Notes: generated from the sequence alone by a model not told the origin. A stretch of DNA of 64,000 nt from Thermoanaerobacteraceae bacterium (GCA_030016635.1 JASEJQ010000003.1:8520-72519), one strand, 5' to 3'; positions 7,194 to 63,726 are shown, counted from the first letter of the stretch. Numbers and translations are program-made.

Positions 7194-7232
7194 GTCATCG
7201 CTTCCTTTCGATATAATGTTTTAACCATCTTT

Positions 7233-7576: not shown

Positions 7577-7577
7577 T

Positions 7578-11171: not shown

Positions 11172-11226
11172 GAAATTACCTCCCTCTATAAATTAATAAT
11201 GAGATTTGTATTTAACTTATTGAGTA

Positions 11227-11257
11227 TGGCATATAACATCCAAAGGCATCCTTAAAG
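11227..11257 (-). repeat. Solo arm fragment of the repeat family, overlapping the kdd stop codon
   Basis: TGGCATATAACATCCAAAGGCATCCTTAAAG matches the arm of copies E and F (E: GGCATATAACATACAAAGGCAGCCTTAAAG). No core is present. Confidence 0.7.
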
Positions 11258-12283: not shown

Positions 12284-12375
12284 GTTGTAAGACCTCCTTA
12301 TATTGATTTTTTGTTATAACATTTTCAACATGACATATAACATCTATTTTTATATCTCAAGCCGAATTTATATAA

Positions 12376-12390
12376 GCAAGAATCATGCCA
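12376..12390 (-). promoter_or_regulatory. Sigma-54 (-24/-12) promoter of the kdd-kamA operon
   Basis: The minus strand reads TGGCAT-GATTC-TTGC(TT), matching the TGGCAY-N5-TTGCW consensus. It lies about 95 nt upstream of the kdd ATG and directly downstream of an EBP gene. Confidence 0.85.
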
Positions 12391-12416
12391 GACGTAAAAA
12401 GCCTATATTACAGGCA

Positions 12417-12453
12417 TAAAAAAATAGATGCTGCCCAAAAATAGGCAGTATCT
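12417..12453 (-). terminator. Hairpin plus U-tract at the EBP stop codon (terminator and/or EBP binding palindrome)
   Basis: Minus strand AGATACTGCC-tattttt-GGGCAGCATCT followed by ATTTTTTTAT. A second small hairpin GCCTG-taatat-AGGC plus TTTTT follows at 12401-12415. Confidence 0.65.
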
Positions 12454-24646: not shown

Positions 24647-26293
24647 TTGAAAAAGCAAATGGCAGTTCTGGTAGCTGCATTGCTTGTCCTTAGCATGTTT
24701 TTATCGGCATGCAGCAGCCAGGATACCCAGCAGAGTCAGCAGCAAGTTCCAGCCGAGCAGCAAACTAGTGAACCGGTGGAGATAACGGCCAACCTGCAGA
24801 CTGAACCCAGAAGCATAGACCCGGCCAAAAACACTGCTATTGATGGTGGGACGGTGATATATCACATATTCGAGGGGCTTACACGTCTGGATAAGAATAA
24901 TAAAGCAGAGCCTGCAGTTGCAGAGAAATGGGATATTTCCAGTGATGGGCTTACCTATACATTCCACCTGAGGGACGGTGTAAAGTGGTCCGATGGAAAG
25001 CCAGTCACCGCTAAGGATTTTGAGTATGCATGGAAGAGGGTGTTAAACCCTGAAACCGGTTCAGAGTATGCATATCAGCTGTATTACATCAAAAACGGCG
25101 AAAAATACAACAATGGTGAAGCAAAGGTTGAGGATGTCGGTGTCACTGCAAAAGACGACAAGACCCTTGTGCTGACTTTAGAATCACCTACACCTTATAT
25201 ACTGGAGCTCCTGGCTTTCTTTACCTATATGCCGGTGAGGCAGGATATAATAGAGGCTCATCCTGAGGACTGGACACAAAGCCCGGAGACATATATAGGT
25301 AATGGAGCCTTTGTGATGACTGCATGGAATCACAATGACTCTATAGTCCTTGAGAAAAACCCCAACTATTGGGATCTACAGAGGATAAAACCGGATAAGA
25401 TAACCTTTTTAATGATCAATGATGCCAACACAGAGCTAGCTGAGTTTGAAAATGGCCGCCTTGACTTTGGAGATAACCCGCCAGCCAATGACTTCCCAAG
25501 ACTTAAGGAAATGGGAGTACTTCATATAGACCCCAGCCTGGCAACCTACGGATATGTGTATAATACAAAGAAGGCACCCTTTGATAACCCCAAGATAAGA
25601 AAGGCATTTTCTCTTGCCATTGACAGAAAGGCCATAGTAGAAACTCCTCCACCGGTCGGTCAGAGACCCGCAGGGGGATGGGTATCTCCTGGTATACCTG
25701 ATGCTGACCCCACAAAGGACTTCAGGGATGTAGGCGGAGACTATTATGATGTGAACAAGGCCAATATAGAAGAAGCAAAGAAGCTGCTTGCCGAAGCCGG
25801 GTACCCTGACGGTAAGGGCCTGCCTAAGATTACCCTGCTATATAATACCAGCGAGGGCCATAAACAGATAGCCGAAATCCTTCAGGAAATGTGGAAACAA
25901 AACCTGGGTGTAGAAGTAGAGCTGGCCAATGAAGAGTGGCAGGTGTTCTTAGATGACAGAGCTAACGGCAACTATCAGGTGGCAAGGCTGGGATGGTTTG
26001 CAGATTATATAGATCCAATGACCTTCCTGGATATGTTTACTACAGGCAGCGGCAATAACAATGCTGATTGGAGCAACAAAGAGTTTGATGAATTGATCGA
26101 CAAGGCCAAACGTACTACCAATGCAGTTGAAAGAATGCAGTATATGCATCAGGCAGAAAACATCCTGATGGATGAGATGGTCGTATTGCCTATATACTTC
26201 TACGTAAACTCTTATGTGGTAAGACCCAATCTGAAGGGTTACCACATAGACCCGTTAGGATATAATTACTTCCATGAGGCGTATAAGGAATAA
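24647..26293 (+). CDS. Peptide ABC transporter substrate-binding lipoprotein (family 5, OppA/DppA-like), paralog 1
   Basis: 548 aa, TTG start with GGGAGGGG SD, lipobox LSACS. No permease or ATPase genes are adjacent. Confidence 0.9.
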   Translation: MKKQMAVLVAALLVLSMFLSACSSQDTQQSQQQVPAEQQTSEPVEITANLQTEPRSIDPAKNTAIDGGTVIYHIFEGLTRLDKNNKAEPAVAEKWDISSDGLTYTFHLRDGVKWSDGKPVTAKDFEYAWKRVLNPETGSEYAYQLYYIKNGEKYNNGEAKVEDVGVTAKDDKTLVLTLESPTPYILELLAFFTYMPVRQDIIEAHPEDWTQSPETYIGNGAFVMTAWNHNDSIVLEKNPNYWDLQRIKPDKITFLMINDANTELAEFENGRLDFGDNPPANDFPRLKEMGVLHIDPSLATYGYVYNTKKAPFDNPKIRKAFSLAIDRKAIVETPPPVGQRPAGGWVSPGIPDADPTKDFRDVGGDYYDVNKANIEEAKKLLAEAGYPDGKGLPKITLLYNTSEGHKQIAEILQEMWKQNLGVEVELANEEWQVFLDDRANGNYQVARLGWFADYIDPMTFLDMFTTGSGNNNADWSNKEFDELIDKAKRTTNAVERMQYMHQAENILMDEMVVLPIYFYVNSYVVRPNLKGYHIDPLGYNYFHEAYKE

Positions 26294-26339
26294 GGAGACA
26301 TACCTCGTCAAGTAAAGAAATGAGATGTATAAAGCAAAG

Positions 26340-26369
26340 AAAAACTCCGGAGCTTACTCCGGAGTTTTT
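26340..26369. terminator. Bidirectional terminator between the convergent OppA-like gene and spoIIR
   Basis: AAAAACTCCGGAG-ctta-CTCCGGAGTTTTT; overlaps the last codons of spoIIR. Confidence 0.8.
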
Positions 26370-27010
26370 CTTTGAAACGCTAGTTTAAATGTGTTTGATA
26401 CCCTGCTTGCTATATCCTCAATTATCTCAACACTCTTCAGCTTAATCGGCGGTTTGTTAGAGGATATTTCCTCAATTTCCTTCTCTGTAAGAACCTTTGA
26501 AAGTTCATCTTTTGTGTTGTCTCTGGCCTGGCCATGAGAGGTATCTACAAAACACAAAGGAGGAAAGAGTACACACCACCAGTTTTTCCCTTCACCGTCT
26601 CCCATGACCACACGGAGTGCATCGTATTCGCCTGCCGGGAGGGTGATAGAACCATATGACTTAATAGGAAATTCAAACCTGCCCATGGTCACCTTGACAG
26701 GATAATTATAGCCTTCACTTTGTACTACTTCTTCCGCTTTTTGCTGTATATCATCCAGTTTGCTGCTAATCAGTCTTTGAGCATCTTCCTTGCTATCTGC
26801 GCTGGCAAGATACTGGTTGAGATAACCTATTACCTCATCCCTTACCTTTAGCTTTAACTGCTGGTCGTCCACATCATCGCTGTTGGCTATAACGTGAAAT
26901 CTCAGCAGTTTATATGACAGGTCTTCCTGCAGATCTTTTTCCGGTAAAATGTATCCTGTCAATAAAACAACTATCATTATGGCAACCAATATCGTAGCGG
27001 TCCATTTCAT
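26354..27010 (-). CDS. spoIIR: Stage II sporulation protein R
   Basis: 218 aa with a signal anchor and the characteristic LRFHVIANSD motif. Confidence 0.9.
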   Translation of the reverse strand: MKWTATILVAIMIVVLLTGYILPEKDLQEDLSYKLLRFHVIANSDDVDDQQLKLKVRDEVIGYLNQYLASADSKEDAQRLISSKLDDIQQKAEEVVQSEGYNYPVKVTMGRFEFPIKSYGSITLPAGEYDALRVVMGDGEGKNWWCVLFPPLCFVDTSHGQARDNTKDELSKVLTEKEIEEISSNKPPIKLKSVEIIEDIASRVSNTFKLAFQRKTPE

Positions 27011-29435: not shown

Positions 29436-29457
29436 ATACACTTTAACCTCATATGAT

Positions 29458-29727
29458 TACACTGCATAAAGTAGACAGAGTCGGCATGTAAAGGCCGGAG
29501 GCACCTTAAAGTAAGGCTTAGCCGCTCTTAGTCTCGAAACAAGTGAGGCAGGGGCATCCGGCATGGACGCCGAATGGAGGCGCACCCTGCCGAGCGAAGA
29601 AGCGAGAATTAGAGCAGCTTGCCGAATGATCAGGTGCCAAGGCTTTTGCTGCTGGCTAAACAATGACTCTCTTTAAGGCCACATTTGACGCTGTATGTCA
29701 TGCTCAAATGGGCTCTCACACTCAAAT
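29458..29727. repeat. Structured intergenic repeat, copy B (short core, inverted relative to its arms)
   Basis: The outer arms are oriented as in copy C (TACACTGCATAAAG...GGCATG...; ...CTCTCTTTAAGGCCACATTTGACGCTGTATGTCATGCTC). The core at 29547-29591 is the reverse complement (GGCAGGGGCATCCGGCATGGACGCCGAATGGAGGCGCACCCTGCC). Bracketed by CT(C/T)ATATGAT. Confidence 0.8.
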
Positions 29728-29728
29728 C

Positions 29729-30907
29729 TTATATGATATTTAACCTTTTACCGACCCTTTCAAATGCCTTTAGTGCAAAGTCAAGATCCTCTTTTGTATG
29801 GTCAGCAGTAACTATTGTCCTGACCCTGGCTCTCCCCATAGGCACAGTAGGATATACTATGCTCTGGGCAAAAACCCCCTCTTCAAAAAGATTGTCGCTC
29901 AGAGCATTTGCCAGCTTGCTGTCGCCTACAATGACAGGTGTAATTGGGGTCTCACTATTTCCTGTATTAAAGCCCATCTCTTTAAGCGCTGCCTTAAAAT
30001 ACCTGGTGTTGTCCCAAAGCTTGTCTGTGTATGATGTATCTGACGAGAGGATATCTATGGCAGCTATACAGGCTGCAGCAACTCCCGGTGTAGGAGCAGT
30101 GCTGAAAAGCAGCGGCCTGCCCCTCTGAATAAGGTAATCTTTCAGTTCCTTCCTGCCTGCCACATATCCGCCGACCACACCGATGGCCTTTGATAATGTA
30201 CCTATCTGAACATCAACCCTGCCGTGAAGATTAAAGTGGTCAACAGAGCCTCTTCCGCTTCTTCCCAGCACACCGCTGGCATGGGCGTCGTCTACATATG
30301 TTATGGCACCATATTTTTCAGCAAGCTCAACAATCTCAGGAAGCCTGGCTATGTCGCCGTCCATGCTGAATACTCCGTCCGTTATAATCATCTTATGATT
30401 GTAGCCGGTACAGGACTTTAAGACCTCCTCTAAGTCCTTCATGTCACTGTGCTTATACCGTTTGACCTCTGCCTTGCTAAGTCTGCAGCCGTCAATTATG
30501 CTTGCATGGTTCAGCTCATCGGATATTATGACATCCCCTTCATCTACAAGCGCAGGTATAGTTCCCATGTTTGCAGTAAATCCTGACTGAAAGACAAGCA
30601 CCGCTTCTGCTCCTTTAAACTCAGCCAGTTTTCTCTCCAGTTCTTCATGGATGCTCATATTGCCTATGATGGTCCTTACCGCGCCTGCACCTGCCCCATA
30701 TTTCTTTGTGGCTTCAATAGCAGCCTCTTTTAGTTTGGGGTGATTGGCCAGGCCGAGGTAGTTGTTTGACGACAGGTTTATGACCTCTTTGCCGTTTATG
30801 ACTGCTCTGGCACCCTGAGGGCTGCCCAACACCTTCAGGTCATGATAAAGGCCTTGTTCTTTTAGCTCAGCAATCCTTTCCTTTAAAAATTCAAGCTGGT
30901 TTGCCAT
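29729..30907 (-). CDS. kbl: Glycine C-acetyltransferase (2-amino-3-ketobutyrate CoA ligase)
   Basis: PLP-dependent alpha-oxoamine synthase family with Lys motif GTLSKAIG. Start set at [10 protein letters not shown] (GGGAGGGA SD). Confidence 0.9.
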
Positions 30908-30936
30908 ATGTATCCCTCCCTGATTATAATTTTGAT

Positions 30937-31160
30937 TCCAGTACATAACCTATAAAGCATGGCATATAACATACAAAGGCAGCCTTAAAGCGAGTCTATG
31001 ATACTCTTAATGAGTGGCAAATGTAGCCGGGGCATCCGGCATGGACGCCACATGGAGGCGTACCCGGCGAAATGCAGACACGAATCGTAGAGTATCAAGA
31101 TGAACGCTCAGGTACCAGGATGTTATTGAAATGCATGAAGTGCTTAATGCACCTGAAACC
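30937..31160 (-). repeat. Structured intergenic repeat, copy E (short core), between tdh and kbl
   Basis: Plus strand: GGCATATAACATACAAAGGCAGCCTTAAAGCGAGTCTATGATACTCTTAATGAGTGGC..., then the core at 31026-31068 GCCGGGGCATCCGGCATGGACGCCACATGGAGGCGTACCCGGC. Confidence 0.8.
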
Positions 31161-31182
31161 AATATTAATTATAGTATTAACT

Positions 31183-32223
31183 CTATGGTATCAGTACCAC
31201 CTTGCCGCAATTTCCCTCTACCATAAGGTCCAATCCCTTTTTATAGTCCTCCAGTGGCAATCTATGGGTGATGATAGGAGAAACATCAATCTTGCCCGAA
31301 TCCAGCAGCGCCCTGACTGTATACCATGTCTCCCAGAGCTTTCTCCCGGTAACGCCAATTATAGTTATTCCCTTAAAGACCATGTCATTGCCCCAGTCAA
31401 ATGTGATATTGCCGTCCGGCACACCTAAGGCTACAAGCACACCACCTGAACGCAGTGCCTTTAAAGATTGGTTTATAGCTGTATTGTTGCCAGACATCTC
31501 CAGGACAACATCTACACCTATCCCCCCTGTAACCTTATGAATCTCTGAAATTACATCCTGCTTTGCTGGATTTATAGCCAGATCAGAGCCCATCTTAACA
31601 GATAAATCCCTTCTGTACTCATTTACCTCACTGGTAAATACCGCAACAGCTCCAGCTGCTTTTGCCACCTGTATGGCTAAAAGTCCTATAGGCCCGCAAC
31701 CAGTTATTAAAACCGTTTTCCCAACCAGGTCAGTGGACAGTGCTGTATGAACCGCATTACCCAGGGGTTCCTGTATAGATGCTACATCTGCAGGAAGTGA
31801 TGGGTCATTCTTCCATGCGTTTACTGCCGGTATCCTTACATATTCTGCAAAACAGCCGTCCATATCTACGCCCAGTATAGAAAGGTCCTGGCAAACATCG
31901 GCATGGCCAGTCCTGCACTGGTAGCATTTCCCACATACCACGTGGGTCTCTGCAGATACATAATCACCTATTTTTATATCGTCAACATCTTTGCCTACCT
32001 CAACCACTTCGCCGCTAAACTCATGACCCATGGTCTGAGGTGGGTTTATCTTGGCCTTTGCCCAGTCATTCCATACATATATGTGGGCATCGGTACCGCA
32101 TATAGAAGTAGCCTTTACTCTTACCAGTATATCCTTTGGACCAGGCTCCGGTACTGCAATCTCCACCAGGTCTGCTCCAGGGGCTGGTGTCAGTTTTCTC
32201 ACAGCCTTCATGGTTCCCTTCAT
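31183..32223 (-). CDS. tdh: L-threonine 3-dehydrogenase (zinc-dependent MDR family)
   Basis: 346 aa with GHEFSGEV and a structural zinc Cys cluster CGKCYQC. Sits upstream of kbl. Confidence 0.9.
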   Translation of the reverse strand: MKGTMKAVRKLTPAPGADLVEIAVPEPGPKDILVRVKATSICGTDAHIYVWNDWAKAKINPPQTMGHEFSGEVVEVGKDVDDIKIGDYVSAETHVVCGKCYQCRTGHADVCQDLSILGVDMDGCFAEYVRIPAVNAWKNDPSLPADVASIQEPLGNAVHTALSTDLVGKTVLITGCGPIGLLAIQVAKAAGAVAVFTSEVNEYRRDLSVKMGSDLAINPAKQDVISEIHKVTGGIGVDVVLEMSGNNTAINQSLKALRSGGVLVALGVPDGNITFDWGNDMVFKGITIIGVTGRKLWETWYTVRALLDSGKIDVSPIITHRLPLEDYKKGLDLMVEGNCGKVVLIP

Positions 32224-32391: not shown

Positions 32392-34038
32392 TTACTCCGC
32401 AAAATATGCATGATGGAAATATATATATCCAAGCGGGTCAACAACATAACCCTGCAGCTTCGGGTCAACAATCACATAGTTGATATAGAAGTATATGGGC
32501 ATCACCACAGCATCATCCATAAGTATATCTTCAGCCTTGTGGAGATACTGCATCCTCTCTTCAGGTGTCTTTGCAGTCTTAGACTTCTTTATCATTTCAT
32601 CAAACTGAGGATTGGAATACTGTGCGTCATTATTGCCCATACCAGTCTGCAGCATATCCAGGAATCCCATGGGGTCTATATAGTCGGATACCCAGCCCCA
32701 TCTGGCTATTTGATAATCATGGGTCTGCCTCCTGGTAGCCAAAAATACCTGCCATTCCTGATTGGCTATTTTAACATCTACGCCCAGATTTTGTTTCCAC
32801 ATCTCCTGAAGCGCTTCTGCTATGGCCTTGTGGCTCTCGCTGGTATTGTAAAGCAGCGTTACTTCAGGCAGGCCTTTGCCATCAGGATAACCTGCTTCGG
32901 CAAGGAGTTTTTTAGCCTCCTCAATATTTGCCTTTGTCGGGTCAAAGTAGTCGCCGCCTACTTTCCTGAAGTCTTCACCCGGCTTTGCATCAGGCATGCC
33001 ATATGGTACCCATGCCGCTGCTAATGGCTGACCACCTTTTACTATCTGGTCTACTATAGCCTTCCTGTCTATAGCCAGAGAAAATGCCTTCCTTACCTTC
33101 GGGTTATCAAACGGCGCCCTCTTTGTATTAAATACATATGCATAGGTAGAGAGGAGCGGATATTCCTTGAGCACACCCTCCTGCTTTAATCTTTCCAGCT
33201 CTGTGGAAGGTGGATTATCGCCAAAATCCAGTGCTCCTGTCTCAAATGTGGAAAGTTCAGTAGCAGCTTCAGAAATCATTGTAAATACAAGTTTATCAGG
33301 CTTTATATCATTAGCATTCCAGTAGTTCTCATTTTTTACCAATACTATGGAATCATTGTGGTTCCATTCAGCCAACTTAAAGGCACCGTTGCCTATATAG
33401 GTTTCAGGATTCTGTGCCCAGTCATCTGGATGGGCCTCTACGATGTCCTTTCTAACCGGCATATAGGTCATAAAGGCAAAAAGCTCCATAATAAACGGTG
33501 TAGGGTTCTCCAGTGTAACCTCTAAGGTCTTTTCATCAATTACTTTTATACCAAGGTCCTCTGCCTTTGCCTCTCCCAGATTGAATTTCTCAGCATTTTT
33601 GATGAAATAAAGCTGATAAGCATAGCTGGATGCGGTCTTCGGGTCTAAAGCCCTCGTCCATGCATAGGCAAAGTCTTCTGCAGTCACCGGTTTGCCGTCA
33701 GACCACTTTGCATCCCTTAAATGGAATGTGATCTTAAGCCCATCATCAGACATTTCCCATTTTTCTGCAATACCGGGTTTTGCCTTTGAGTTCTCATCCA
33801 GGGTGGTCAGACCTTCAAAGACGTGTAAAATAACCTCAGCCCCATCAAGAGCACTGTTGAGTGCAGGGTCTATAGTCTGTGGCTCTGTCCCCATGTTATA
33901 ACGTATGACCACCTCTTCTGGACTGCTGTTATTCTGTCCCTGGTTTTGCGGGCTTTGCTGCTGTCCGCCTGAGCTGCAGCCTGCGACCATTGATAATACC
34001 ATCAAAATGGCCAGGCCGATAGTCAAAATTCTCTTCAT
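32392..34038 (-). CDS. Peptide ABC transporter substrate-binding lipoprotein (OppA/DppA-like), paralog 2
   Basis: 548 aa, lipobox VAGCS. Collinear with paralog 1, for example the shared block EAKKLLAEAGYPDGKGLP. No transporter genes are adjacent. Confidence 0.9.
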   Translation of the reverse strand: MKRILTIGLAILMVLSMVAGCSSGGQQQSPQNQGQNNSSPEEVVIRYNMGTEPQTIDPALNSALDGAEVILHVFEGLTTLDENSKAKPGIAEKWEMSDDGLKITFHLRDAKWSDGKPVTAEDFAYAWTRALDPKTASSYAYQLYFIKNAEKFNLGEAKAEDLGIKVIDEKTLEVTLENPTPFIMELFAFMTYMPVRKDIVEAHPDDWAQNPETYIGNGAFKLAEWNHNDSIVLVKNENYWNANDIKPDKLVFTMISEAATELSTFETGALDFGDNPPSTELERLKQEGVLKEYPLLSTYAYVFNTKRAPFDNPKVRKAFSLAIDRKAIVDQIVKGGQPLAAAWVPYGMPDAKPGEDFRKVGGDYFDPTKANIEEAKKLLAEAGYPDGKGLPEVTLLYNTSESHKAIAEALQEMWKQNLGVDVKIANQEWQVFLATRRQTHDYQIARWGWVSDYIDPMGFLDMLQTGMGNNDAQYSNPQFDEMIKKSKTAKTPEERMQYLHKAEDILMDDAVVMPIYFYINYVIVDPKLQGYVVDPLGYIYFHHAYFAE

Positions 34039-38523: not shown

Positions 38524-40170
38524 TCATTCCCAGTAGGCATATCTGAAGAATTTAAACTCCAGCGGTGTGGCGATGTAACCCTTCAGGCCTGGCCTTACCA
38601 CCAGGTTTTCCGTATAAAAGTATATGGGTCCTACAGGAAACTCCTTCATGAGGAGTTCATCAGCCTTATGCATAGCCTCCATTCTCATTTTCTGGTCAGA
38701 CTGCGTCCTTGCAATATTTATATACTCATCATATCCTTTGTTGCTCCAGTGCGGGTTATTATTGGCATTATCTGAAGACAGCAGTTCAAGCATACCCAGT
38801 GGGTCAATATAGTCAGCTATATACCCGTCCCTGGCTATGTCATAATTCCCCTGCCTTCTGGTATCCAAAAATACATTCCATTCCTCCTGTTTTAGCTCAA
38901 TATCTATGCCAAGATTTTGCTTCCACATCTGCTGAATTGCTTCACCTATCTGCTTGTGTGTCTCGCTGGTATTAAAGGTATAGGTAAGTTTTGGGAATCC
39001 CTTCCCGTCGGGATAACCGGCTTCTTTCAGTAATTCTTTGGCTTTCTCTACGTTTGCCTTAGTTGGGTCATAAAAATCCCCACCCACTTTCCTGAAATCC
39101 TGAGAAGAATCAGCATCAGGAAGACCATATGGTACAAAAGCACCGGCGGGAATCTGGCCACCCTTAGTAATATTTTCCACTATTGCTTTTCTGTCAATGG
39201 CTAAGGTCAAAGCCTCCCTTACCCTCGGGTCATCCAGTGGCTTTTTGCTCACATTGTAGCTTAAATAATAAGTCCCTATTGTAGGTACTGTTATTAAATA
39301 GCCTTCTTCTTTCAGCCTTGCAAGTTCCTGAGCTGGTGGGTTGTCTATAAAGTCCACCTGGCCTGACTCAAAAGCAGAAAGAGATGTATTCTCATCAACA
39401 ATTTCAGTAAAAATTAATTTGTTCAGCTTAACATTTTGAGCATCCCAGTAGTTAGGGTTTTTTACAAATTCAATAGTATCATTGTGCACCCATTTTACCA
39501 TCTGGAAGGGGCCATTGCCTATATATGTCTCTGGGTGCATAGCCCATCCCTCCGGATCTTTCTCAACCATGTCCTGCCTCACCGGTACCAGTTCATGCCT
39601 GGAAAATATCTGAAGTATATATGCGGTTGGTGCCTTTAAGGTTACCTCCAATGTCTTATCGTCAACTGCCTTTATACCCACATCCTCCCAATTTGCCTTG
39701 CCGTTATAGTATTCTTCTGCATTTTTTACATAAAACAGATTATAGGCGTAGTGTGCACCTACATTAGGGTCCAATGTCCTCTTCCATGAATATACAAAAT
39801 CATCTGCAGTCACAGGCTTGCCGTCATACCAGTTTGCGTTTTCCCTTATATGGAATGTCCAAACAAGTCCATCCTGAGATACGTCCCATTTCTCTGCAAT
39901 GGCGGGCTCAATAACATTCTTCTCATCATGCCTCACCAATGCCTCAAAGTTGTTGTATATTACCTGATCTCCCGGTATCTCACTACAGAATGCCGGGTCT
40001 ACACTCTGAGGTTCAGCCCCTAAATTATAAATGAGTGTATCTTTATCCTTCGGAGTCTCCTGGGCCTCCTGAGGTTTTTCTTCCTGCGCTGTCTGCTGAT
40101 TTGCAGAACATCCTGTTATAAGGGTAAAAGCAAGAATCGCTGTTAATAAAAATATTAATATCCTCCTCAT
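38524..40170 (-). CDS. Peptide ABC transporter substrate-binding lipoprotein (OppA/DppA-like), paralog 3
   Basis: 548 aa, lipobox ITGCS. Collinear with paralogs 1 and 2 (KAKELLKEAGYPDGKGFP). Confidence 0.9.
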   Translation of the reverse strand: MRRILIFLLTAILAFTLITGCSANQQTAQEEKPQEAQETPKDKDTLIYNLGAEPQSVDPAFCSEIPGDQVIYNNFEALVRHDEKNVIEPAIAEKWDVSQDGLVWTFHIRENANWYDGKPVTADDFVYSWKRTLDPNVGAHYAYNLFYVKNAEEYYNGKANWEDVGIKAVDDKTLEVTLKAPTAYILQIFSRHELVPVRQDMVEKDPEGWAMHPETYIGNGPFQMVKWVHNDTIEFVKNPNYWDAQNVKLNKLIFTEIVDENTSLSAFESGQVDFIDNPPAQELARLKEEGYLITVPTIGTYYLSYNVSKKPLDDPRVREALTLAIDRKAIVENITKGGQIPAGAFVPYGLPDADSSQDFRKVGGDFYDPTKANVEKAKELLKEAGYPDGKGFPKLTYTFNTSETHKQIGEAIQQMWKQNLGIDIELKQEEWNVFLDTRRQGNYDIARDGYIADYIDPLGMLELLSSDNANNNPHWSNKGYDEYINIARTQSDQKMRMEAMHKADELLMKEFPVGPIYFYTENLVVRPGLKGYIATPLEFKFFRYAYWE

Positions 40171-40195
40171 TAAATTTCCCCTCCCTAATATTATT

Positions 40196-40453
40196 AATTA
40201 CACTGAAAGAAGTCTATATTGGCATGCCAACGGCATCCATGTGCCTGATCGTTTGTCCTGATACTCTAATATTTGCCGCTGCATTTCGCAGGGTACGCCT
40301 CCATTCGGCGTCCATGCCTCAGGTCGGCTCATCCGATATCCATGCCGGATGTCCCTGCTCCATTTGTTGCAAATCCAAGAGTATCATGGACTCTCTTTAA
40401 GGCCACATTTGATGCTGTATGTCATGCTCAAATTGGGTTTTTACACCCAAACC
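40196..40453 (+). repeat. Structured intergenic repeat, copy C (long core), between iadA and OppA-like paralog 3
   Basis: Arms GGCATGCCAACGGCATCCATGTGCC / GGCCACATTTGATGCTGTATGTCATGCTC. The core at 40288-40358 has closing helix GCAGGG...CCCTGC. Confidence 0.8.
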
Positions 40454-40454
40454 A

Positions 40455-41615
40455 TTATTCAAATGTTCCCTTAATAATGGCCTGGCCTTTATCCACCATT
40501 AACCTACCTTTTGCAAACACCATTTCAATACCCATATTCTCATCCATAACTACAATATCCGCATCACTTCCTACTGCTATATATCCTTTTTGCGGATAGT
40601 TCTTGAGTCTTTTGGCCACATTGGATGTAACAACACTGGCAGCCTTATCTATACCTATTTCCCTTGCAAGGTCTTTAAATTCCTCATAGAGTGTATGGGG
40701 GTCTGCCACCAGAAGCCCTTTTATCTCTCCTTTCTCATTGAATAGCGGCATACTCCCGTTACCATCAGAACTCATTGTAATGTTTTCCAGAGGCACCCCG
40801 CCTTCTATACACATCCTTATTGCCTCCGATGGTTTTATTGATTTATCCACGTCTGCCTTTGGGGAAACTCCCGAGGTAATATCTATATATCCACCCATTC
40901 TCCCCCACCTGATGCCATCCTCTAAGAGTTCCCTCCGCCTATTTATATGGGTGGGCACAAACTGGGTAATGGGTATCTCTGTACTCTCAACTATTTCAAA
41001 TAGCATGGAGAGCATACCATTACCGTTCCCAACGTGCAAATGCACTACACCGGCCTTTCCTGAAAGCATACCACCCACCCTTGCCTCCGCTGCTACTCTC
41101 TTTAGTTCATCAATAGTTGGTTGAGATGAGCGATGATCTGATATAGCTATCTCACCGGCACCAATCACCTTATCAATAAGTATTATGTCATTTCTTATAC
41201 TCCCGGTAATCGTACATGTAGGCAACTGATAGCACCCTGAATAAATATAGGTGGATATGCCCTCTGCCTCCAATCCCCTTGCCCTGGCAAGGAGACTTTC
41301 CACATGCCTTGTGGTACCATCTGTACCTAAAAGTCCTGCTACAGTGGTGATGCCTGAGGTAGTAAGTTTAGATAGCATTACCTCTGGTGTCCTGGATGTA
41401 TAGCCAGCTTCCCCGCCTCCCCCTATTATATGTACATGCTGGTCTATGAACCCCGGAAGGGCTAACTTCCCGTTCAAAACATACTCTTCTATTGCCAGCC
41501 CTGAAATGTTTATATCTTTTTCAACCATGGCAATTCTATCCCCGGCAATGAGTATGTCTTTTATACCCATGTCTTCTGGAGCAAAAACGTGAGCATTTTT
41601 TAGCAATTTAAACAT
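40455..41615 (-). CDS. iadA: Beta-aspartyl (isoaspartyl) dipeptidase
   Basis: 386-aa amidohydrolase-fold protein with metal motif GFIDQHVHIIGGGGE. Confidence 0.85.
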   Translation of the reverse strand: MFKLLKNAHVFAPEDMGIKDILIAGDRIAMVEKDINISGLAIEEYVLNGKLALPGFIDQHVHIIGGGGEAGYTSRTPEVMLSKLTTSGITTVAGLLGTDGTTRHVESLLARARGLEAEGISTYIYSGCYQLPTCTITGSIRNDIILIDKVIGAGEIAISDHRSSQPTIDELKRVAAEARVGGMLSGKAGVVHLHVGNGNGMLSMLFEIVESTEIPITQFVPTHINRRRELLEDGIRWGRMGGYIDITSGVSPKADVDKSIKPSEAIRMCIEGGVPLENITMSSDGNGSMPLFNEKGEIKGLLVADPHTLYEEFKDLAREIGIDKAASVVTSNVAKRLKNYPQKGYIAVGSDADIVVMDENMGIEMVFAKGRLMVDKGQAIIKGTFE

Positions 41616-41736: not shown

Positions 41737-41779
41737 ACTTTAATGGGGTGAAATTCAATCCATTTCACCCCATTAAAGT
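41737..41779. promoter_or_regulatory. Perfect 18-bp inverted repeat overlapping the EBP stop codon (candidate enhancer site and/or terminator)
   Basis: ACTTTAATGGGGTGAAAT-tcaatcc-ATTTCACCCCATTAAAGT. No U-tract follows on the minus strand. Centred about 70 nt upstream of the predicted sigma-54 start site. Confidence 0.5.
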
Positions 41780-43740
41780 TTAGTCTCCAAATATTCTAAT
41801 CCTTTTCCAGTTATCTTTGTACCTTCAATTCCTTTATTTATTTCAATAAGTCCCATATTTTTAAGTCTATCTATTATATGCCTTAACCTGTATTCACTTA
41901 TCTGGATTCCACTATCCGAGAGTTCTTTATAGAGAGTCCTTCTGCCCATGGGTCTTTCTTTGAGAAAATTCAATATGCGTATGGAGTCTGCATAGATGCT
42001 CTCCCTGTTTAATCTGTTGTCAATGTCTATATTTCTTACCCCCAAGGAACCTGTATATTGAGGTATGTCATCAATCCTGACCAGTTCATCCTCCTTTACT
42101 GTACAGAGGTATTCTACTACATTTTCCAGTTCTCTGACGTTACCCGGCCATGAGTATTCCTCAAAGAATTTCATCGCCTCTTCGCTTATTTTAAGTTGTC
42201 TCCCCTGCTTTTTCATGAAGTATCTCATCAATGGTATTATATCCTCCACCCTTTCTCTTAGAGGTGGTATTCTCACCGGGAGGACATTTAGCCTGTAGTA
42301 CAGGTCCTCTCTGAATCTGCCATCTTCTACCAGCTTCGCCAGGTCCTTATTTGTTGCTGCCATTACCCTGACATTTATAGGTATTACCTTTGTACCTCCA
42401 ACCTTTCTTATCTGTCTCTCCTGGAGTACACGAAGCAGCCTGGCCTGAAGCTCCATTGGCGCATCGCCTATTTCGTCTAAGAATATAGTTCCACCATGGG
42501 CTTCTTCAAAAAGCCCTATTTTACCTCCCTTTCTGGCCCCTGTAAATGCACCTTCCTCATAGCCGAATAGTTCGCTTTCCAGGAGGTTTGACGGGATTGA
42601 TGCGAAATTTACCGCCACAAAAGGCATGTCCTTCCTCTTAGAAAGATTATGTATGGCCTGAGCGAGAAGTTCTTTCCCCGTACCTGATTCACCAGTGATG
42701 AGTACTGTGGAATCACTCTTCGCTATCTTTTTTGCCAGATTAACGGTCTTTGACATTCCCCTGCTCTCCATTATTATATCAGTAGTGCTATATCGGGCTA
42801 TATTTCCATGCTCAGTAAGCTTCAATCTGAGCTTTCTTTCCAGTTCCCTGACCTCCGATACATCCTTTATGACATAAAGATAGTCCTGTCCCATATCTTT
42901 CTTTGTCACAACCAATTCTCTGTTGTTTATATTATAGATACCGGCATCGGCCAGACCACCCTTTATACCATATTTAGCTGCTATCTTACCTATTGTAATA
43001 TTAGAATTTGATACAAGCCCGATAAATTCTTCTGCCCTTGGATTCACGAGCTTAATCTTTCCATTTTTATCTGCGGCAACTACCCCTTCATCTATGGAAT
43101 TTAATATTGTCTCCAACTGTTCTTTTACCCTTTTCTGTATATCGGCATAATATTTCGCTTCTTTTGTGAGTTCGATTATATCACTTATGTATTTTACGGA
43201 TATCATATTGCTTTTTATATTTAATAGATTAAAATGTTCCAATATCTCATAGATAGTGGATAGGTCCAGTGTCCTCACTCCTATATCTATGAAACTTTCA
43301 ATTCCATATGGTACAAGTTGTGGTTCTCCAGGGGTTACCACATAGTCATACTCTTTATCCACTTCATAGCCAGGCCAATACGGGATAAAATCCAGATAAC
43401 CAAATCCAAGGTTTCTTAAAAGCTCTATGGTCTCCATTGTAGACCTTTCAAGGTCATTTACTAAAAGGACCCTGCTGCCTGGCGGTATAGTAAAGATTCC
43501 TCCCAATTCCTTATAGTTAACAGCTCTTCTGGCTACGATGAAAGGTGTACCAGCTTCAATATGGCCTACTGCTGCATCATAAACAGCATCACTGCTGATC
43601 AGAACAAGGTCGTCCCGCACTATATCTGGTATCCCCTTCTCTACAGACAGTCCTTTTATCTCGATAGAGTCCCCTATTAAATCTCTTATCTGTGAAATCA
43701 ATATCCTCAATGTATTTTCGCCCTGACTTACCACAGTCAC
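41773..43740 (-). CDS. Sigma-54-dependent transcriptional activator with atypical architecture (N-terminal sensor - PAS - AAA+ - C-terminal winged-helix-like domain)
   Basis: GESGTGKE, ESELFGYEEGAFTGA. There is no Fis-type HTH; the C-terminus reads RRTLYKELSDSGIQISEYRLRHIIDRLKNMGLIEI. GTG start. Confidence 0.85.
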   Translation of the reverse strand: MTVVSQGENTLRILISQIRDLIGDSIEIKGLSVEKGIPDIVRDDLVLISSDAVYDAAVGHIEAGTPFIVARRAVNYKELGGIFTIPPGSRVLLVNDLERSTMETIELLRNLGFGYLDFIPYWPGYEVDKEYDYVVTPGEPQLVPYGIESFIDIGVRTLDLSTIYEILEHFNLLNIKSNMISVKYISDIIELTKEAKYYADIQKRVKEQLETILNSIDEGVVAADKNGKIKLVNPRAEEFIGLVSNSNITIGKIAAKYGIKGGLADAGIYNINNRELVVTKKDMGQDYLYVIKDVSEVRELERKLRLKLTEHGNIARYSTTDIIMESRGMSKTVNLAKKIAKSDSTVLITGESGTGKELLAQAIHNLSKRKDMPFVAVNFASIPSNLLESELFGYEEGAFTGARKGGKIGLFEEAHGGTIFLDEIGDAPMELQARLLRVLQERQIRKVGGTKVIPINVRVMAATNKDLAKLVEDGRFREDLYYRLNVLPVRIPPLRERVEDIIPLMRYFMKKQGRQLKISEEAMKFFEEYSWPGNVRELENVVEYLCTVKEDELVRIDDIPQYTGSLGVRNIDIDNRLNRESIYADSIRILNFLKERPMGRRTLYKELSDSGIQISEYRLRHIIDRLKNMGLIEINKGIEGTKITGKGLEYLETKL

Positions 43741-48877: not shown

Positions 48878-48935
48878 TGGTACACCTCCAGATATAATTA
48901 TACACCAAAAGTCTATAGATTTAACCATGGAAATG

Positions 48936-49190
48936 ATTTTTGTATAAGAAGTCTGTTTGCGAATGATAGTGGCACCCATGCACCTGAACACTCGTCTTGA
49001 TACGCTAATAATTCGTGGCTGTATTCCGCCGGGTACGCCTCCATTCGGCGTCCTTGCCTCAGGGTCGGCCTCTTAAGTCCATGCCAGATGCCCCGGCTAC
49101 ACTTGCCACTCATTAAGAGTATCATAAACTCTCTTTAAGGCTGCATTTGGTGCTCACTATCATTCTTCATAGGGGTATTTACAGTACAAT
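48936..49190 (+). repeat. Structured intergenic repeat, copy D (long core), upstream of pth
   Basis: Arms GAATGATAGTGGCACCCATGCACC / GGCTGCATTTGGTGCTCACTATCATTC. Core at 49028-49097. Bracketed by a perfect 10-nt repeat CATGGAAATG (48926-48935 and 49191-49200). Confidence 0.85.
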
Positions 49191-49256
49191 CATGGAAATG
49201 TTAACATAACATCAATTATAGAAATACTTTTTACAATCTGGTATAATTGAGAAAAA

Positions 49257-49360: not shown

Positions 49361-49422
49361 GACACCTTTCTCTTTAGTGTGGCAACGTCAGATTGCCTGT
49401 AACTAAAGAGAAAGGAGGTGTC
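49361..49422 (+). promoter_or_regulatory. Riboswitch expression platform: SD-sequestering helix
   Basis: GACACCTTTCTCTTTAGT (49361-49378) is complementary to ACTAAAGAGAAAGGAGGTGTC (49402-49422), which contains the folT SD. The alternative pairing is CCACATTAAAG / CTTTAGTGTGG. Confidence 0.7.
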
Positions 49423-49425
49423 AGT

Positions 49426-49959
49426 ATGAATCAGCATGCACTATCTGCAAAAAGCATTGCCTATGCAGGGTTATTCATAGCCTTGAGTATTGTCCTTACA
49501 AGGACCATGAGCTTTATGATAACTGTAGGTGGTATACAGGGCGTTAGGATAGGTTTGGGCGGAATGCCTATCATTCTCTCAGGCATTGTCTTAGGGCCTG
49601 GCCTGGGTGCTTTAGTAGGTGCAGCATCTGATGTCATAGGGTATATACTCTTCCCAAATGGCCCATACTTCCCTGGTTTCACGCTTACAGCAGCCCTCTC
49701 AGGTGCATTGCCAGCGATACTTCTCAGGTTTATAGACAGAAAGAGGTCTTTCCCTCTTATAAAAATTCTCATTGTCATAGCAATATCAGACATTATTACA
49801 TCCATCTTTTTAGATACCTACTGGCTGGTCATCATGTATCACAAGGCCATTGCGGTACTTCTCCCACCAAGGATAACTGCACGGGTGATCATGATACCTG
49901 TCAACTCTTACCTGATATATTCGTTGCTCAGATATGTACCAGGACTGAAAACGAGATAA
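49426..49959 (+). CDS. folT: ECF transporter S component, folate family
   Basis: Start at MNQHALSAKSIAYAGLFIALSIVL (GGAGG 7 nt upstream). Six TM segments and THF riboswitch context. Confidence 0.85.
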   Translation: MNQHALSAKSIAYAGLFIALSIVLTRTMSFMITVGGIQGVRIGLGGMPIILSGIVLGPGLGALVGAASDVIGYILFPNGPYFPGFTLTAALSGALPAILLRFIDRKRSFPLIKILIVIAISDIITSIFLDTYWLVIMYHKAIAVLLPPRITARVIMIPVNSYLIYSLLRYVPGLKTR

Positions 49960-49999
49960 ATTAAAGGACTGCCAATGACTTCAGGCAGTCCTTTAATTT
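49958..49999. terminator. Bidirectional terminator between convergent folT and the EBP gene
   Basis: AAATTAAAGGACTGCC-aatgacttca-GGCAGTCCTTTAATTT, a 16-bp stem. Confidence 0.8.
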
Positions 50000-52062
50000 A
50001 TCTCTATATTATATTTTTCTATCTTCTCGTACAGTGTAGACCTGCTTATGTTGAGCATCTTCGCAGTCTTATATTTATTCCCTTTGTTCATCTTCAAATA
50101 TCTCTCCAGCACTTCTCGTTCAGTCTGCTCCAGTACATCCTTGAGGTCATTGGGCATAAAGTTCTTCCTGGGGTTAACCTTTTGAATGATATATGGCGGT
50201 AGGTGCCTTTCTTCCACTATATACCCGTATTCCACCATATCGATAGCCCTCTCTAGGACATTCTCCAGCTCTCTGATGTTGCCCGGCCAGCTATAACTCT
50301 TTAATATTGTCATAGCCTCATCGGATATCTTATCCACATGTTTGCCCATATTTTTTGATATCTTATGCAGGAGATGTTTTACTAATACATCTATGTCTTC
50401 CTTCTTTTCCTTGAGAGGCGTTATGTTTATATTTATAACATTGAGCCTGTAGTAAAGGTCTTCACGGAATTCACCATTTTTCACCATTAGTTCAAGATTT
50501 TTATTGGTTGCTGCTATAATCCTTACATCAACCTTTATAGTCTTTATTCCGCCAACTCTTTCAATCTCTTTTTCCTGTATAGCCCTCAAGAGCTTGGCCT
50601 GCATATATACAGGCATGTCGCCGATTTCATCAAGGAATATGGTGCCGTGATTGGCCATTTCAAACTTCCCAGGTTTGCCTCCGCGCTTGGCACCGGTAAA
50701 TGCCCCCTCCTCGTAGCCAAACAGTTCCGATTCCAAAAGTTCAGCTGGTATAGCAGCGCAGTTTACCTTTATATATGGGCCGTCCGCCCGCTGACCGGTA
50801 TAGTGGATTGCCTTGGCAAAAAGTTCCTTGCCCGTCCCGGTCTCACCGGTTATGAGCACATTGGATGTGGTCATGGCTGCCCTTGAGGCATAATACTTGG
50901 CCTGTTCAATGGCAGGGCTTACACCAATTATGTCATCAAAGGAAAATTTATCCTCATGGAGTTTCTTTTTGTACTGCTCCAGTTCCCTCTCCAGCTGCTT
51001 TGTCTTATTCATCAGGTTATCCAGTTCGTAAATATCCCTGAACATCACAACCCCTACCGCACCTACAATCTCTCCATCCTGTTTTATGGGTACCCTCTTG
51101 ACAATAGTGGTATGGCCTCTTATCACCTGAGCCTCACCAATCTCAGGGATGCCTGTCTTTGTCACGATGTGCATCCTGGTGTTGTCAATCACCTCTGTTA
51201 CATGTTTGCCGATGGCCTCATCCCCTACACCGAGAAATTCTTGGTATGTCTTATTGAGCTTGGTTATATACCCACCCTTGTCCACGACAACTATCCCGTC
51301 ATAGGTGGATTCCATAATGGTTTCTAATAGCTCAAGGGAGCTCTGTGCTTTAGATAGTTCTTTAATAATGCCATTCAGGTCAGTCATATCCTGAAATACA
51401 GCAATGGCGCCTATTATTTTATCATCCTTTATTATTGGGCACCTGTTTATCAAAAGTTCCCTGTTCCTTATTGTAGCCCTCACGTTTACTTGCGGCAGAC
51501 CATTTATTAAAACATCAAAAAGTCCGCTTTCAGGGAGCACCTCTTTTATATGTTTCCCTAAGCAGTACATAGAATTCAACTTCAAAAGCCTCTCGGCAGA
51601 GTGGTTCATATGATCTATTATGCCCTTATCATTGATCGATATTATTGAGTTATATGAGGCTTCCACTATGGCATCCAGTCTTTCAAGCCTTTCATGCAAA
51701 ACCTCCAGGAGTTTTTGCTGTACATCTATCATCCTTACCAGGCCAATAAAGCCATCCTTTTTATCAACCACTACAAGTTCTGATTCATTATGGTTTATAA
51801 CCTTTAATATATCTGTATCAGTGTAAACCACATTAAAATTATTTGTCGAGTATGGGATTACAGAGTCAGCAGGGTCATAAAACCCATGGGATTTTATTAA
51901 GAATTCTTTGACAGAAAACACCCCTATCAGTTTTCCCTCATGCAACACAGGGATAGTATTAATGCTGTTTTGAGCAGCCATCTCCAGGGCTTCCCCTATA
52001 GTGGTCTTTTCATCAACGTATAACTTAATGACTTTAACATCACTTATCGTAGGGCTTTCCAT
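49993..52062 (-). CDS. Sigma-54-dependent transcriptional activator (CBS pair - 2x PAS - AAA+ - Fis-type HTH)
   Basis: GETGTGKE, ESELFGYEEGAFTGA, C-terminal HTH KYKTAKMLNISRSTLYEKIEKY. CBS-like N-terminus (NTIPVLHEGKLIGVFS). Confidence 0.9.
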   Translation of the reverse strand: MESPTISDVKVIKLYVDEKTTIGEALEMAAQNSINTIPVLHEGKLIGVFSVKEFLIKSHGFYDPADSVIPYSTNNFNVVYTDTDILKVINHNESELVVVDKKDGFIGLVRMIDVQQKLLEVLHERLERLDAIVEASYNSIISINDKGIIDHMNHSAERLLKLNSMYCLGKHIKEVLPESGLFDVLINGLPQVNVRATIRNRELLINRCPIIKDDKIIGAIAVFQDMTDLNGIIKELSKAQSSLELLETIMESTYDGIVVVDKGGYITKLNKTYQEFLGVGDEAIGKHVTEVIDNTRMHIVTKTGIPEIGEAQVIRGHTTIVKRVPIKQDGEIVGAVGVVMFRDIYELDNLMNKTKQLERELEQYKKKLHEDKFSFDDIIGVSPAIEQAKYYASRAAMTTSNVLITGETGTGKELFAKAIHYTGQRADGPYIKVNCAAIPAELLESELFGYEEGAFTGAKRGGKPGKFEMANHGTIFLDEIGDMPVYMQAKLLRAIQEKEIERVGGIKTIKVDVRIIAATNKNLELMVKNGEFREDLYYRLNVININITPLKEKKEDIDVLVKHLLHKISKNMGKHVDKISDEAMTILKSYSWPGNIRELENVLERAIDMVEYGYIVEERHLPPYIIQKVNPRKNFMPNDLKDVLEQTEREVLERYLKMNKGNKYKTAKMLNISRSTLYEKIEKYNIEIN

Positions 52063-63332: not shown

Positions 63333-63380
63333 TCCATTTCCCCCCGCCTTCTGCTTCATAGATATGATTATTTTGCTAAA

Positions 63381-63702
63381 CTTACTTAAGCGTGGCATAT
63401 AACACCCTGTGACACAGATAGCGTCTTTGTGAACCAGGAAGCTCAAACTCTCCACATGGCATATAACATCCTCGCACCTGGGCGTTCGTCTTGATGCAAC
63501 AAGGTCAAGGGACACTCCTCTACTTCGATGAGGGGCTATGCAGATGAGAAATGTCCCTATTCCACTCGCTGTCTGCATTTCGCCGGGTACGCCTCCATGC
63601 GGCGTCCATGCCTACGGTTCGTCTCCATTTGCCACTCATCAAGAGTATCATAGACTCACTTTAAGAATGCCTTTGGATGTTATATGCCACACTCCAGTAA
63701 AG
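63381..63702 (+). repeat. Structured intergenic repeat, copy F (composite: extra inverted arm, about 70-nt internal insertion, truncated core)
   Basis: The outer ~27-nt arms CTTACTTAAGCGTGGCATATAACACCC (63381-63407) and GGATGTTATATGCCACACTCCAGTAAAG (63675-63702) are inverted repeats. A second TGGCATATAACATCC lies at 63467-63481. The core starts at 63582 (GCCGGGTACGCCTCCATGCGGCGTCCATGCC) but lacks the closing CCCGGC. Confidence 0.75.
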
Positions 63703-63726
63703 ATTATTCAATAGGACTTATCCTTA

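Follow-up and report, generated by a model that had tools for sequence, protein, structure and literature searches.

The 2010 description of TwoAYGGAY RNA (Rfam family RF01731) drew on human-gut metagenomes, Clostridiales and one gamma-proteobacterium, and the motif has remained an orphan ever since (Weinberg et al. 2010, PMC2864571). Its closing P1 stem is 'often very large (e.g., 24 base pairs...)' although some members have a very small one (Weinberg 2010, Additional file). A strong resemblance of its loops to the CsrA-binding motif was reported in the RMfam paper (PMC4333381), and Rfam places the family in its clan CL00106 for Csr-Rsm protein binding. A CsrA sponge has so far been the sole functional idea for TwoAYGGAY, and a 2025 preprint still calls the motif 'relatively unexplored'. 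In the accessible part of the literature that names the motif, mobility, target-site duplications and empty sites are not mentioned, and copy-specific arms were not found described. Here we analysed 64,000 nt of DNA, referred to below as the window, from a Thermoanaerobacteraceae bacterium metagenome-assembled genome (GCA_030016635.1 JASEJQ010000003.1:8520-72519), which holds six copies (A to F) of a palindromic repeat. The centre of these repeats is TwoAYGGAY; they are therefore not an unclassified element but a new branch, visibly mobile, of an orphan family already known. They are probably copies of a mobile, non-autonomous TwoAYGGAY element, palindromic and about 250 nt long, although any particular enzyme that moves it can be proposed with much less confidence.

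The Correia/NEMIS, ERIC and RUP families are miniature inverted-repeat transposable elements (MITEs) that are palindromic over their whole length, form RNA hairpins when co-transcribed and have conserved ends; Correia elements duplicate about 2 bp (TA) of their target. The attC sites and REP/REPIN sequences are structure-recognised single-strand substrates with a variable loop or spacer, and they make no 10-13-bp duplication. The window copies resemble the MITE families, in the traits generally attributed to these, in being small, non-coding, intergenic, rod-like and often placed in operons, with target-site duplication, many copies and internal-deletion variants. Like MITEs in general, they have terminal inverted repeats, duplications (at A, D and B) and empty orthologous sites (for B, C, D and E). 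Their interior, however, is conserved across bacterial classes while their arms are free, the duplication is about 10-13 bp, and no sequence similarity to Correia/NEMIS, ERIC or RUP was seen. With attC and REP/REPIN the copies share conserved pairing, free arm sequence, short terminal motifs that are kept and a multi-copy nature, but they differ in the 10-13-bp duplication and the conserved, structured core, and neither IntI nor RAYT genes were seen in their neighbourhood. With a conserved interior and variable arms, their architecture is the reverse of that of REPINs; REP/REPIN or IS200/IS605-derived palindromic elements insert without duplication and have a conserved arm and a variable loop. 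The CsrB/RsmZ sponge RNAs likewise have GGA in hairpin loops and belong to clan CL00106; these come from single-copy genes, each having a promoter and a terminator to itself, and carry about 5-22 GGA sites, whereas the window copies are inserted repeats with two or three GGA sites and no promoter or terminator of their own.

The assignment to TwoAYGGAY comes from a cmscan comparison with Rfam 15. Copies A and C matched RF01731 over the whole model (positions 1-168; model length 168) on the minus strand, at 7285-7442 with 56.9 bits and at 40246-40400 with 54.5 bits, both above the gathering score of 43 bits. An earlier interpretation made from the DNA alone (the sequence-only reading) had called the repeats unclassified and outside any Rfam family, and had named an Rfam match of the core as the result that would end their novelty; such a match was obtained, on the strand opposite to the one described, and since the core is an existing family, the claim to novelty falls by its own standard. 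The AYGGAY loop GGCAUGGA is the reverse complement of TCCATGCC as written there, and the P1 sequence GAUACUCUU...AGAGUAUC is held in common with the Rfam consensus. The two loops read AUGGAU and AUGGAC in copy C, and AUGGAC and AAGGAC, with one Y replaced by A, in copy A; with their flanking bases the loop forms in A and C are CAUGGAC/CAUGGAU and CAAGGAC/CAUGGAC, and a third GGA lies in GAAUGGAGG. Copies D, B and E gave no RF01731 match even at E ≤ 10 on short stretches (331 nt for D), nor did copy F at E ≤ 1 in the scan of the whole window. These four are related by sequence to A and C, with the fold decayed or about 30 nt lost, and one loop is left in B, E and F after the ~30-nt deletion. 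That four of the six copies lie outside the Rfam model, which the sequence-only reading did not see, means that individual copies are decaying and that only A and C keep the fold.

The window copies thus form a weak-scoring and divergent branch. Besides the full-model match of A and C, the loop motifs and the P1 sequence, they share with canonical TwoAYGGAY a long, variable closing stem, a multi-copy nature and a host among the Clostridia. They differ in score (about 55 bits, compared with 137-159 bits in Agathobacter rectalis), in a GC-rich closing helix of their own (CCGGGG/CCCGGC) and the third GGA loop, in AT-rich arms that are shared between copies, in derivative short-core forms, and in clear target-site duplications and empty sites.

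Insertion, which had escaped the sequence-only reading, can be demonstrated by comparison with relatives, whose contigs are collinear with the window and whose flanking proteins are 77-94% identical (88-94% for Kbl of contigs L004-L007). The tdh-kbl spacer, which holds copy E, measures 275 nt in the window and 45-82 nt in L004-L007; the kbl-ispE spacer (copy B) measures 392 nt and 113-174 nt, respectively; and the iadA-oppA spacer (copy C) measures 284 nt in the window, 25 nt in Calorimonas adulescens (L255) and 18 nt in a Logan contig (L258). Copy D is absent from the pth promoter region of C. adulescens L255. At site B the empty-site comparison gives the host sequence as TAA-ATATCATATRAG-GTTAAAGTGTATGCC: copy B sits between two ATCATATRAG sequences, of which L006 and L007 have a single one, and this comparison fixes the junctions of B and confirms the host origin of its repeat.

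The target-site duplications point the same way. Directly repeated sequence abuts A, D and B (Table 1), whereas among 3000 random pairs of 30-nt windows an exact repeat of at least 10 nt was found in 2 and one of at least 11 nt in none. The duplication of A contains the kamC stop codon (7578-7580), and that of D extends to 13 nt with 12 of 13 positions matching (48923-48935 and 49188-49200). The repeats flanking C, one of which (ATTATTCA) overlaps with the stop codon of iadA, are not significant by themselves. At A, D and B the distal repeat is followed by GTTAAA, in a constant orientation relative to the element ends; at B and D this hexamer is aligned with host sequence in relatives, the flanking GTTAAAT of D being matched in Calorimonas. 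Because the repeat of A holds the kamC stop codon, that of B is seen at the empty site and the GTTAAAT of D is present in Calorimonas, the repeats are host sequence and not element. GTTAAA, being matched in relatives, is for its part a target preference (TTTAAC on the other strand) rather than part of the element. The element's own end begins with RTT, so that a 10-bp and a 13-bp duplication cannot be told apart. The window has six copies in 64 kb, and there were none in 21 kb of the relative with 88% identity, nor in 21 kb of Calorimonas; this is a lineage-specific burst of copies, recently inserted. Target-site duplications together with absence in close relatives imply that the copies arrived through insertion rather than segmental duplication.

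All six copies fold as single long rods (-67 to -121 kcal/mol), with the helix and GC-rich core that the sequence-only reading had described. Conservation falls from the centre outwards: mean pairwise identity is 0.92 in the 27-nt 3' half of the core (GGACGCCGAATGGAGGCGTACCCGGCG), 0.84 in the 5' inner arm (TTAAAGAGAGTCTATGATACTCTT), 0.71 in the 3' inner arm and 0.45-0.58 in the outer arms and termini. Hence the portrait of a MITE-like but atypical repeat, better conserved inside than in its arms, is borne out by identity per segment and extends to A. rectalis, where the contrast is more extreme; the published large P1 stem had partly hinted at it. Near identity of the core in all copies, as first proposed, applies to the 3' half and not to the 5' half, which has many indels and shows gaps in about half of all pairs compared. 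Hairpin 1 is mutated in D, and in F the 5' half of the core is missing, including the 5' side of the closing helix. Three arm types (GAATGATAGTGAGCATC, GCATGACATACAGCATC and GCATGGCATATAACATC) do exist, at the low identity just given, yet they are recognisably homologous to each other; a single copy carries one type on both sides, the types changing together.

The repeats are a structured, multi-copy, non-coding family, as had been proposed, and their paired positions covary: in the alignment within the window, 11 of 35 consensus pairs are changed on both sides. The compensatory double change noticed earlier (GCCGGG to GCAGGG) is real, with CCGGG/CCCGG in A, D and E and CAGGG/CCCTG in B and C at columns 50/118, but since B and C share their arm type as well, it counts as one event. 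The hairpin loop variants tccattc, tccatgt and tccatgc are present as listed, as are the long-core form (A, C, D) and the short-core form (B, E). The alignment shows that the short form is without about 30 nt between two GGCAWGGACGCC direct repeats, which would be the outcome expected of a deletion between these repeats with loss of one of the two loop-bearing hairpins. Copy F has a ~60-nt hairpin insert at about 63500-63565 and carries the arm motif TGGCATATAACA twice (63394-63407 and 63457-63468).

Copy E had been listed as inverted; the core is inverted in B as well as in E, relative to A, C, D and F. In a blastn comparison of B with C, the right arm aligned +/+ at 90% identity and the interior +/-, while the outer ends run in the same direction. 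The right arm of B is a reverse-complement copy of the 5'-type arm, both arms of B being of the 5' type, and this combination of inverted core and symmetric arms suggests inversion, recombination or template switching between arms. G-U pairs number 40 in the sense folds and 39 in the antisense folds of the window copies, and with such equal counts the arms give no sign of RNA-level selection on one strand and behave like repeats at the DNA level or indifferent to strand.

The near-intact state of the duplications suggests that little neutral change followed insertion, and the 45-58% identity of the outer arms would therefore reflect divergence among source lineages. These lineages kept the core, so that the core and arm pairing, and not arm sequence, would be needed for propagation or be selected, which argues against a single transposase that reads arm sequence. 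Three options are left: an enzyme that reads short termini and/or the fold, a useful RNA captured more than once, by different elements, or a host-selected RNA that is also mobile. A mobile element whose core is required in cis is favoured. Its conserved interior is TwoAYGGAY, with two hairpins bearing A-Y/A-GGA-Y loops and closed by the long P1 helix. In this lineage it has entered short AT-rich intergenic spacers of housekeeping operons and duplicated about 10-13 bp of host DNA, with three of the six insertions adjoining host TTTAAC (GTTAAA on the other strand) in one orientation relative to the element ends. It encodes no protein, its copies show no strong promoter or intrinsic terminator in the regions scanned (A, B/E, C and D), and individual copies are decaying. 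Mobilisation would occur in trans. The enzyme, with its gene at another place in the genome, would need the short termini (CTGTAAAAACC...GGTTTTTACAG), arm pairing and/or the core in its folded state, whatever the sequence of the arms; indifference to arm sequence would explain how lineages keep the core while their arms diverge in step.

The more conventional alternative is a classical MITE derived from one DDE insertion sequence (IS), IS4-like by its CTGT... termini, with TwoAYGGAY as a passenger from the parent's untranslated region. IS4-family elements make 9-13-bp duplications and begin with CTG or CAT, so the termini and long duplications of the window copies would fit, as would their terminal inverted repeats and their small, non-coding, multi-copy nature. 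Yet the termini and outer arms are the least conserved parts (0.45-0.58), neither the window nor the phage and plasmid collections yielded an IS with such ends, and in A. rectalis one genome holds the same core between unrelated arms, which one cognate transposase cannot explain. We regard such an origin as very improbable.

The A. rectalis copies come from a single record (NZ_CP143948.1) that was recovered by blastn with the Rfam consensus; it is labelled a plasmid, yet has ribosomal-protein and rpoBC operons. Its four canonical TwoAYGGAY copies (137-159 bits, 267-274 nt each) have cores that are 80-92% identical. Their outer arms (45-53 nt) have a self-complementarity of 93-100% and a GC content of 60-75%, although the region is otherwise AT-rich, and show no detectable similarity to each other or to anything else in 248 kb, phages not having been searched. 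Acquisition of arm sequences from elsewhere in the genome was considered and rejected, as these arms match only themselves within the 248 kb. In a joint alignment of the four copies with A, C and D of the window, 19 of 34 pairs have changes on both sides and the loop motifs are invariant between the two organisms. A conserved core with free but paired arms is therefore a property of the whole family and not a peculiarity of the window, and the comparison indicates that selection keeps the core and arm pairing, not arm sequence. According to the published alignment, Psychromonas ingrahamii also has several copies, which lie within larger repeated blocks. Strings of the window sub-branch were not found in the searched part of the Weinberg 2010 Stockholm file, in which the alignment is gapped. 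A truncated A. rectalis copy (about NZ_CP143948.1 141124-141183) abuts an IS607-family transposase/TnpB pair (CDS 139200-140946), with RAGATH-18 (68.8 bits) and a ZMP/ZTP riboswitch (57 bits) nearby.

Arms that share no sequence while remaining so nearly perfect palindromes also raise the idea that a folded single strand, either single-stranded DNA (ssDNA) or RNA, is mobilised through its structure, arm pairing bringing the termini together beside the core, or that an RNA intermediate is copied into DNA. The recognition of integron attC sites and of IS200/IS605 or REP hairpins is comparable. The three window arm types, which change together on both sides, agree with this, as do the retention of the same 5'-type end by all arm fragments, the apparently variable duplication length and an asymmetric TTTAAC target used in fixed orientation; there is also a weak likeness of about 7 nt between the ends in the two organisms (CTGTAAA/GTGTAAA and GCGTAAG/CTGCAAG). 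However, attC/IntI, IS200/IS605 and REP/RAYT systems make no 10-13-bp duplications, and the window has no gene for a reverse transcriptase, HUH enzyme or tyrosine recombinase that is linked to the copies. An excess of G-U over A-C, which would point to an RNA stage, is absent in the window (40 vs 39) and weak in A. rectalis (15 vs 10). Template-switch 'quasipalindrome' correction can keep arms perfect, with no special enzyme. Mobilisation of this kind is thus an unlikely explanation. The same holds for its extension to the family, namely that TwoAYGGAY might be no family of sRNA genes but the conserved working part of widespread palindromic mobile elements whose substrate is the folded core, any perfectly paired stem and a ~7-nt terminus. 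Arm sequence would then drift or be replaced and be kept perfect by hairpin-templated correction, and the enzyme, which would make long staggered cuts beside TTTAAC, possibly on an ssDNA or RNA intermediate, would be of a family not so far linked with MITEs; that, too, we consider improbable. Among other candidates, an integron cassette or attC site is suggested by the GTTRRRY-like GTTAAA and was rejected on account of dispersed copies and duplications; a sigma-54 promoter in the TGGCAT arms was discarded for its poor -12 element; and casposon-like integration has nothing to recommend it beyond the long duplication.

Several observations weigh against a mobile, non-autonomous TwoAYGGAY element. 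The flanking repeats at E and F are at background level, and duplication length is ambiguous, being 10 or 13 bp, or about 7-8 bp at C. The four canonical A. rectalis copies are without significant flanking duplication; mobility with duplication may be a property of the sub-branch, or those copies may be old. Conservation of the core from Clostridia to Psychromonas argues that the RNA itself is under selection, and a purely selfish-DNA account fails there. No autonomous partner or mobilising gene was found, so that naming an enzyme family is a guess: an IS with the element's ends was found neither in the window nor in the phage and plasmid collections, and copy C had no blastn match among plasmids and phages. 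Finally, the sub-branch is known from one window, scans of genome, metagenome and viral collections having given no further members. A 21-base core pattern had two matches in the genome set and one in the metagenome set, all by chance and without an Rfam match, and these core-pattern scans are no test for an IS whose ends match. Among viral contigs, seven chance matches came from a shorter core pattern and none from an arm pattern; two gapped P1-helix patterns gave more than 120 loci each, but with about 200 chance matches estimated the gapped pattern is too weak, and nhmmer found no family member in 2.1 Mb.

Nearly all genes of the window lie on the minus strand. Judged from orientation, transcription would run in the TwoAYGGAY sense through A, C, D and F and antisense through B and E. 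In the regions of A, B/E, C and D that were scanned there is no intrinsic terminator inside the copies, and promoter-like matches reach only 9 of 12 positions, at or near shuffle expectation. These data bear on a reading in which the copies are dispersed genes for trans-acting small RNAs (sRNAs) that sequester CsrA, duplicated and kept for dosage, the arms serving as a stabilising stem. The Csr-Rsm clan and the loop match to the CsrA-binding motif (PMC4333381) speak for it, and so do the GGA loops of A and C with the third GGA in GAAUGGAGG, the invariance of the loops between the window and A. rectalis, and the co-orientation with neighbouring genes of all four A. rectalis copies and four of the six window copies. 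On the other side, there is neither a convincing own promoter nor an intrinsic terminator; the two-hairpin fold is lost in four of six copies, unexpected for maintained genes; two copies are antisense to surrounding transcription; duplications and absence in close relatives indicate insertion rather than segmental duplication; and CsrA binding of TwoAYGGAY, a motif still 'relatively unexplored' in 2025, is a published hypothesis. Such sRNA genes are accordingly an unlikely account of the copies. A sponge activity is nonetheless compatible with a mobile element, and a side effect of this kind at the RNA level is possible, the GGA loops being the only support for it here. For the mobile TwoAYGGAY element, four copies in sense and two antisense would be transcribed within host operon mRNA, and the predicted rod-like hairpin could be processed or bind a GGA-recognising protein such as CsrA.

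For an orphan motif, the window offers unusually clean evidence that members are inserted, decaying mobile DNA, given the exact 10-13-bp duplications that include host stop codons and the four empty sites in relatives. The first question about TwoAYGGAY becomes what moves the element and recognises its core, and not merely whether it titrates CsrA. What is possibly new is the evidence for mobility of this divergent branch and the copy-specific arms, the RF01731 core being already known; the result does not amount to a new element class but is a solid and useful annotation, with a modest lead on a motif that is still an orphan. The copies sit in lysine-fermentation, threonine-degradation and peptide-uptake operons and beside a tetrahydrofolate (THF) riboswitch promoter, where folded hairpins of 230-345 nt are likely to affect mRNA processing.

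The six copies and the solo arm were recovered where the sequence-only reading had placed them. An nhmmer profile built from the copies and run over the window finds exactly six full copies (E 1e-55 to 1e-79) and, besides these, only the solo arm, an extra inverted arm and a partial arm (Table 1); repeat detection groups the same six copies, 230-345 nt long. The 14-mer TCCATGCCGGATGC occurs six times with up to two mismatches, against 0.33 expected; one match, at 20592, is outside all copies, and F is not matched.

Table 1. Positions in the window of the element copies, their fragments and the repeats that flank them
Feature	Position (strand)	Form or sequence	Support	Location
Copy A	7233-7576 (-)	long-core form, TwoAYGGAY fold intact	nhmmer 7222-7588, E 2.8e-75	between kamC and lysine 5,6-aminomutase alpha gene
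Copy B	29458-29727 (+)	short-core form	nhmmer 29449-29694, E 3.1e-55	between kbl stop codon and kbl terminator
Copy C	40198-40453 (-)	long-core form, TwoAYGGAY fold intact	nhmmer 40186-40458, E 4.5e-76	between iadA and oppA
Copy D	48936-49190 (-)	long-core form, hairpin 1 degenerate	nhmmer 48917-49197, E 2.6e-79	between pth promoter and divergent THF-riboswitch/folT promoter
Copy E	30937-31160 (+)	short-core form	nhmmer 30928-31183, E 1.8e-67	tdh-kbl spacer
Copy F	63381-63702 (-)	composite	nhmmer 63411-63716, E 5e-56	
Solo 5'-type arm	11216-11261 (+)	ends abruptly at CCTTAAAG	nhmmer E 6.6e-08, model positions 28-73	
Extra inverted arm	29621-29731		nhmmer E 1.8e-09	right arm of copy B
Partial arm	63361-63407		nhmmer	beside copy F
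Nested insert	7443-7530	88 nt; TTAA at 7439-7442 and 7527-7530	alignment gap	in copy A
Target-site duplication of A	7220-7232 and 7577-7589	TTTAACCATCTTT	13/13 exact	
Target-site duplication of D	48926-48935 and 49191-49200	CATGGAAATG	10/10 exact	
Target-site duplication of B	29448-29457 and 29728-29737	CTCATATGAT and CTTATATGAT	9/10	
Flanking repeats of C	40190-40197 and 40454-40461	ATTATTAA and ATTATTCA	7/8, supported by empty site	

No conserved open reading frame (ORF) was found among the copies, in agreement with the sequence-only reading. Its description of all members as intergenic is right for the copies, which sit in spacers, and not for the solo arm, which includes the stop codon of the kdd ORF (11252-11254) and so is not purely intergenic. 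The last two kdd codons also lie inside the solo arm (CCTTAAAG), and the fragment may supply the present end of that reading frame. The sequence CATGACATATAACATC in the kdd 5' leader (12312-12361) closely resembles the arm motif CATGGCATATAACATCC and is maybe an eroded solo arm, below the nhmmer threshold. The 88-nt insert of copy A, of which blastn found no second copy in the window, may reflect another tiny and unrelated insertion event within the element. In the 88% relative, the empty tdh-kbl spacer (L004 9955-10000) contains TTACAGTATGGCATGATCAGG, which resembles the terminus (TTTACAG), the arm motif TATGGCAT and the inner arm (GATCAGG) run together, either as the footprint of an old copy or by chance.

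Of the 40 ORFs of the window that were annotated with Pfam/NCBIfam, every one is a housekeeping gene, and none encodes a transposase, an integrase or a reverse transcriptase; among them are genes for lysine fermentation (kamA, kamC, aminomutase subunits, kdd), the arginine deiminase pathway, mfd, pth, folT and butyrate genes. Three paralogous SBP_bac_5/OppA-like oligopeptide-binding genes, at 24647-26293 (+), 32392-34038 (-) and 38524-40170 (-), explain the long 71-78% repeats I1, I2, D3 and D9, which have no relation to the element. Copy D lies about 65 nt upstream of the THF riboswitch (RF01831, 49257-49352 (+), 78.5 bits), which precedes the ORF of FolT (49393-49959 (+)), a folate-family ECF transporter S component. 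Upstream of the kdd/lysine-fermentation operon there is a sigma-54-type promoter CTGGCATGATTCTTGCT (TGGCAT-N5-TTGC) at 12376-12391 (-), adjoined by a sigma-54 activator gene (12452-13789); other such genes lie at 41773-43740 and 49993-52062. Weak, sub-threshold Rfam matches (ohsC_RNA, BSnc120) at 26289-26431 coincide with a strong hairpin with a GC stem and a T run between convergent genes, which is most simply a bidirectional terminator.

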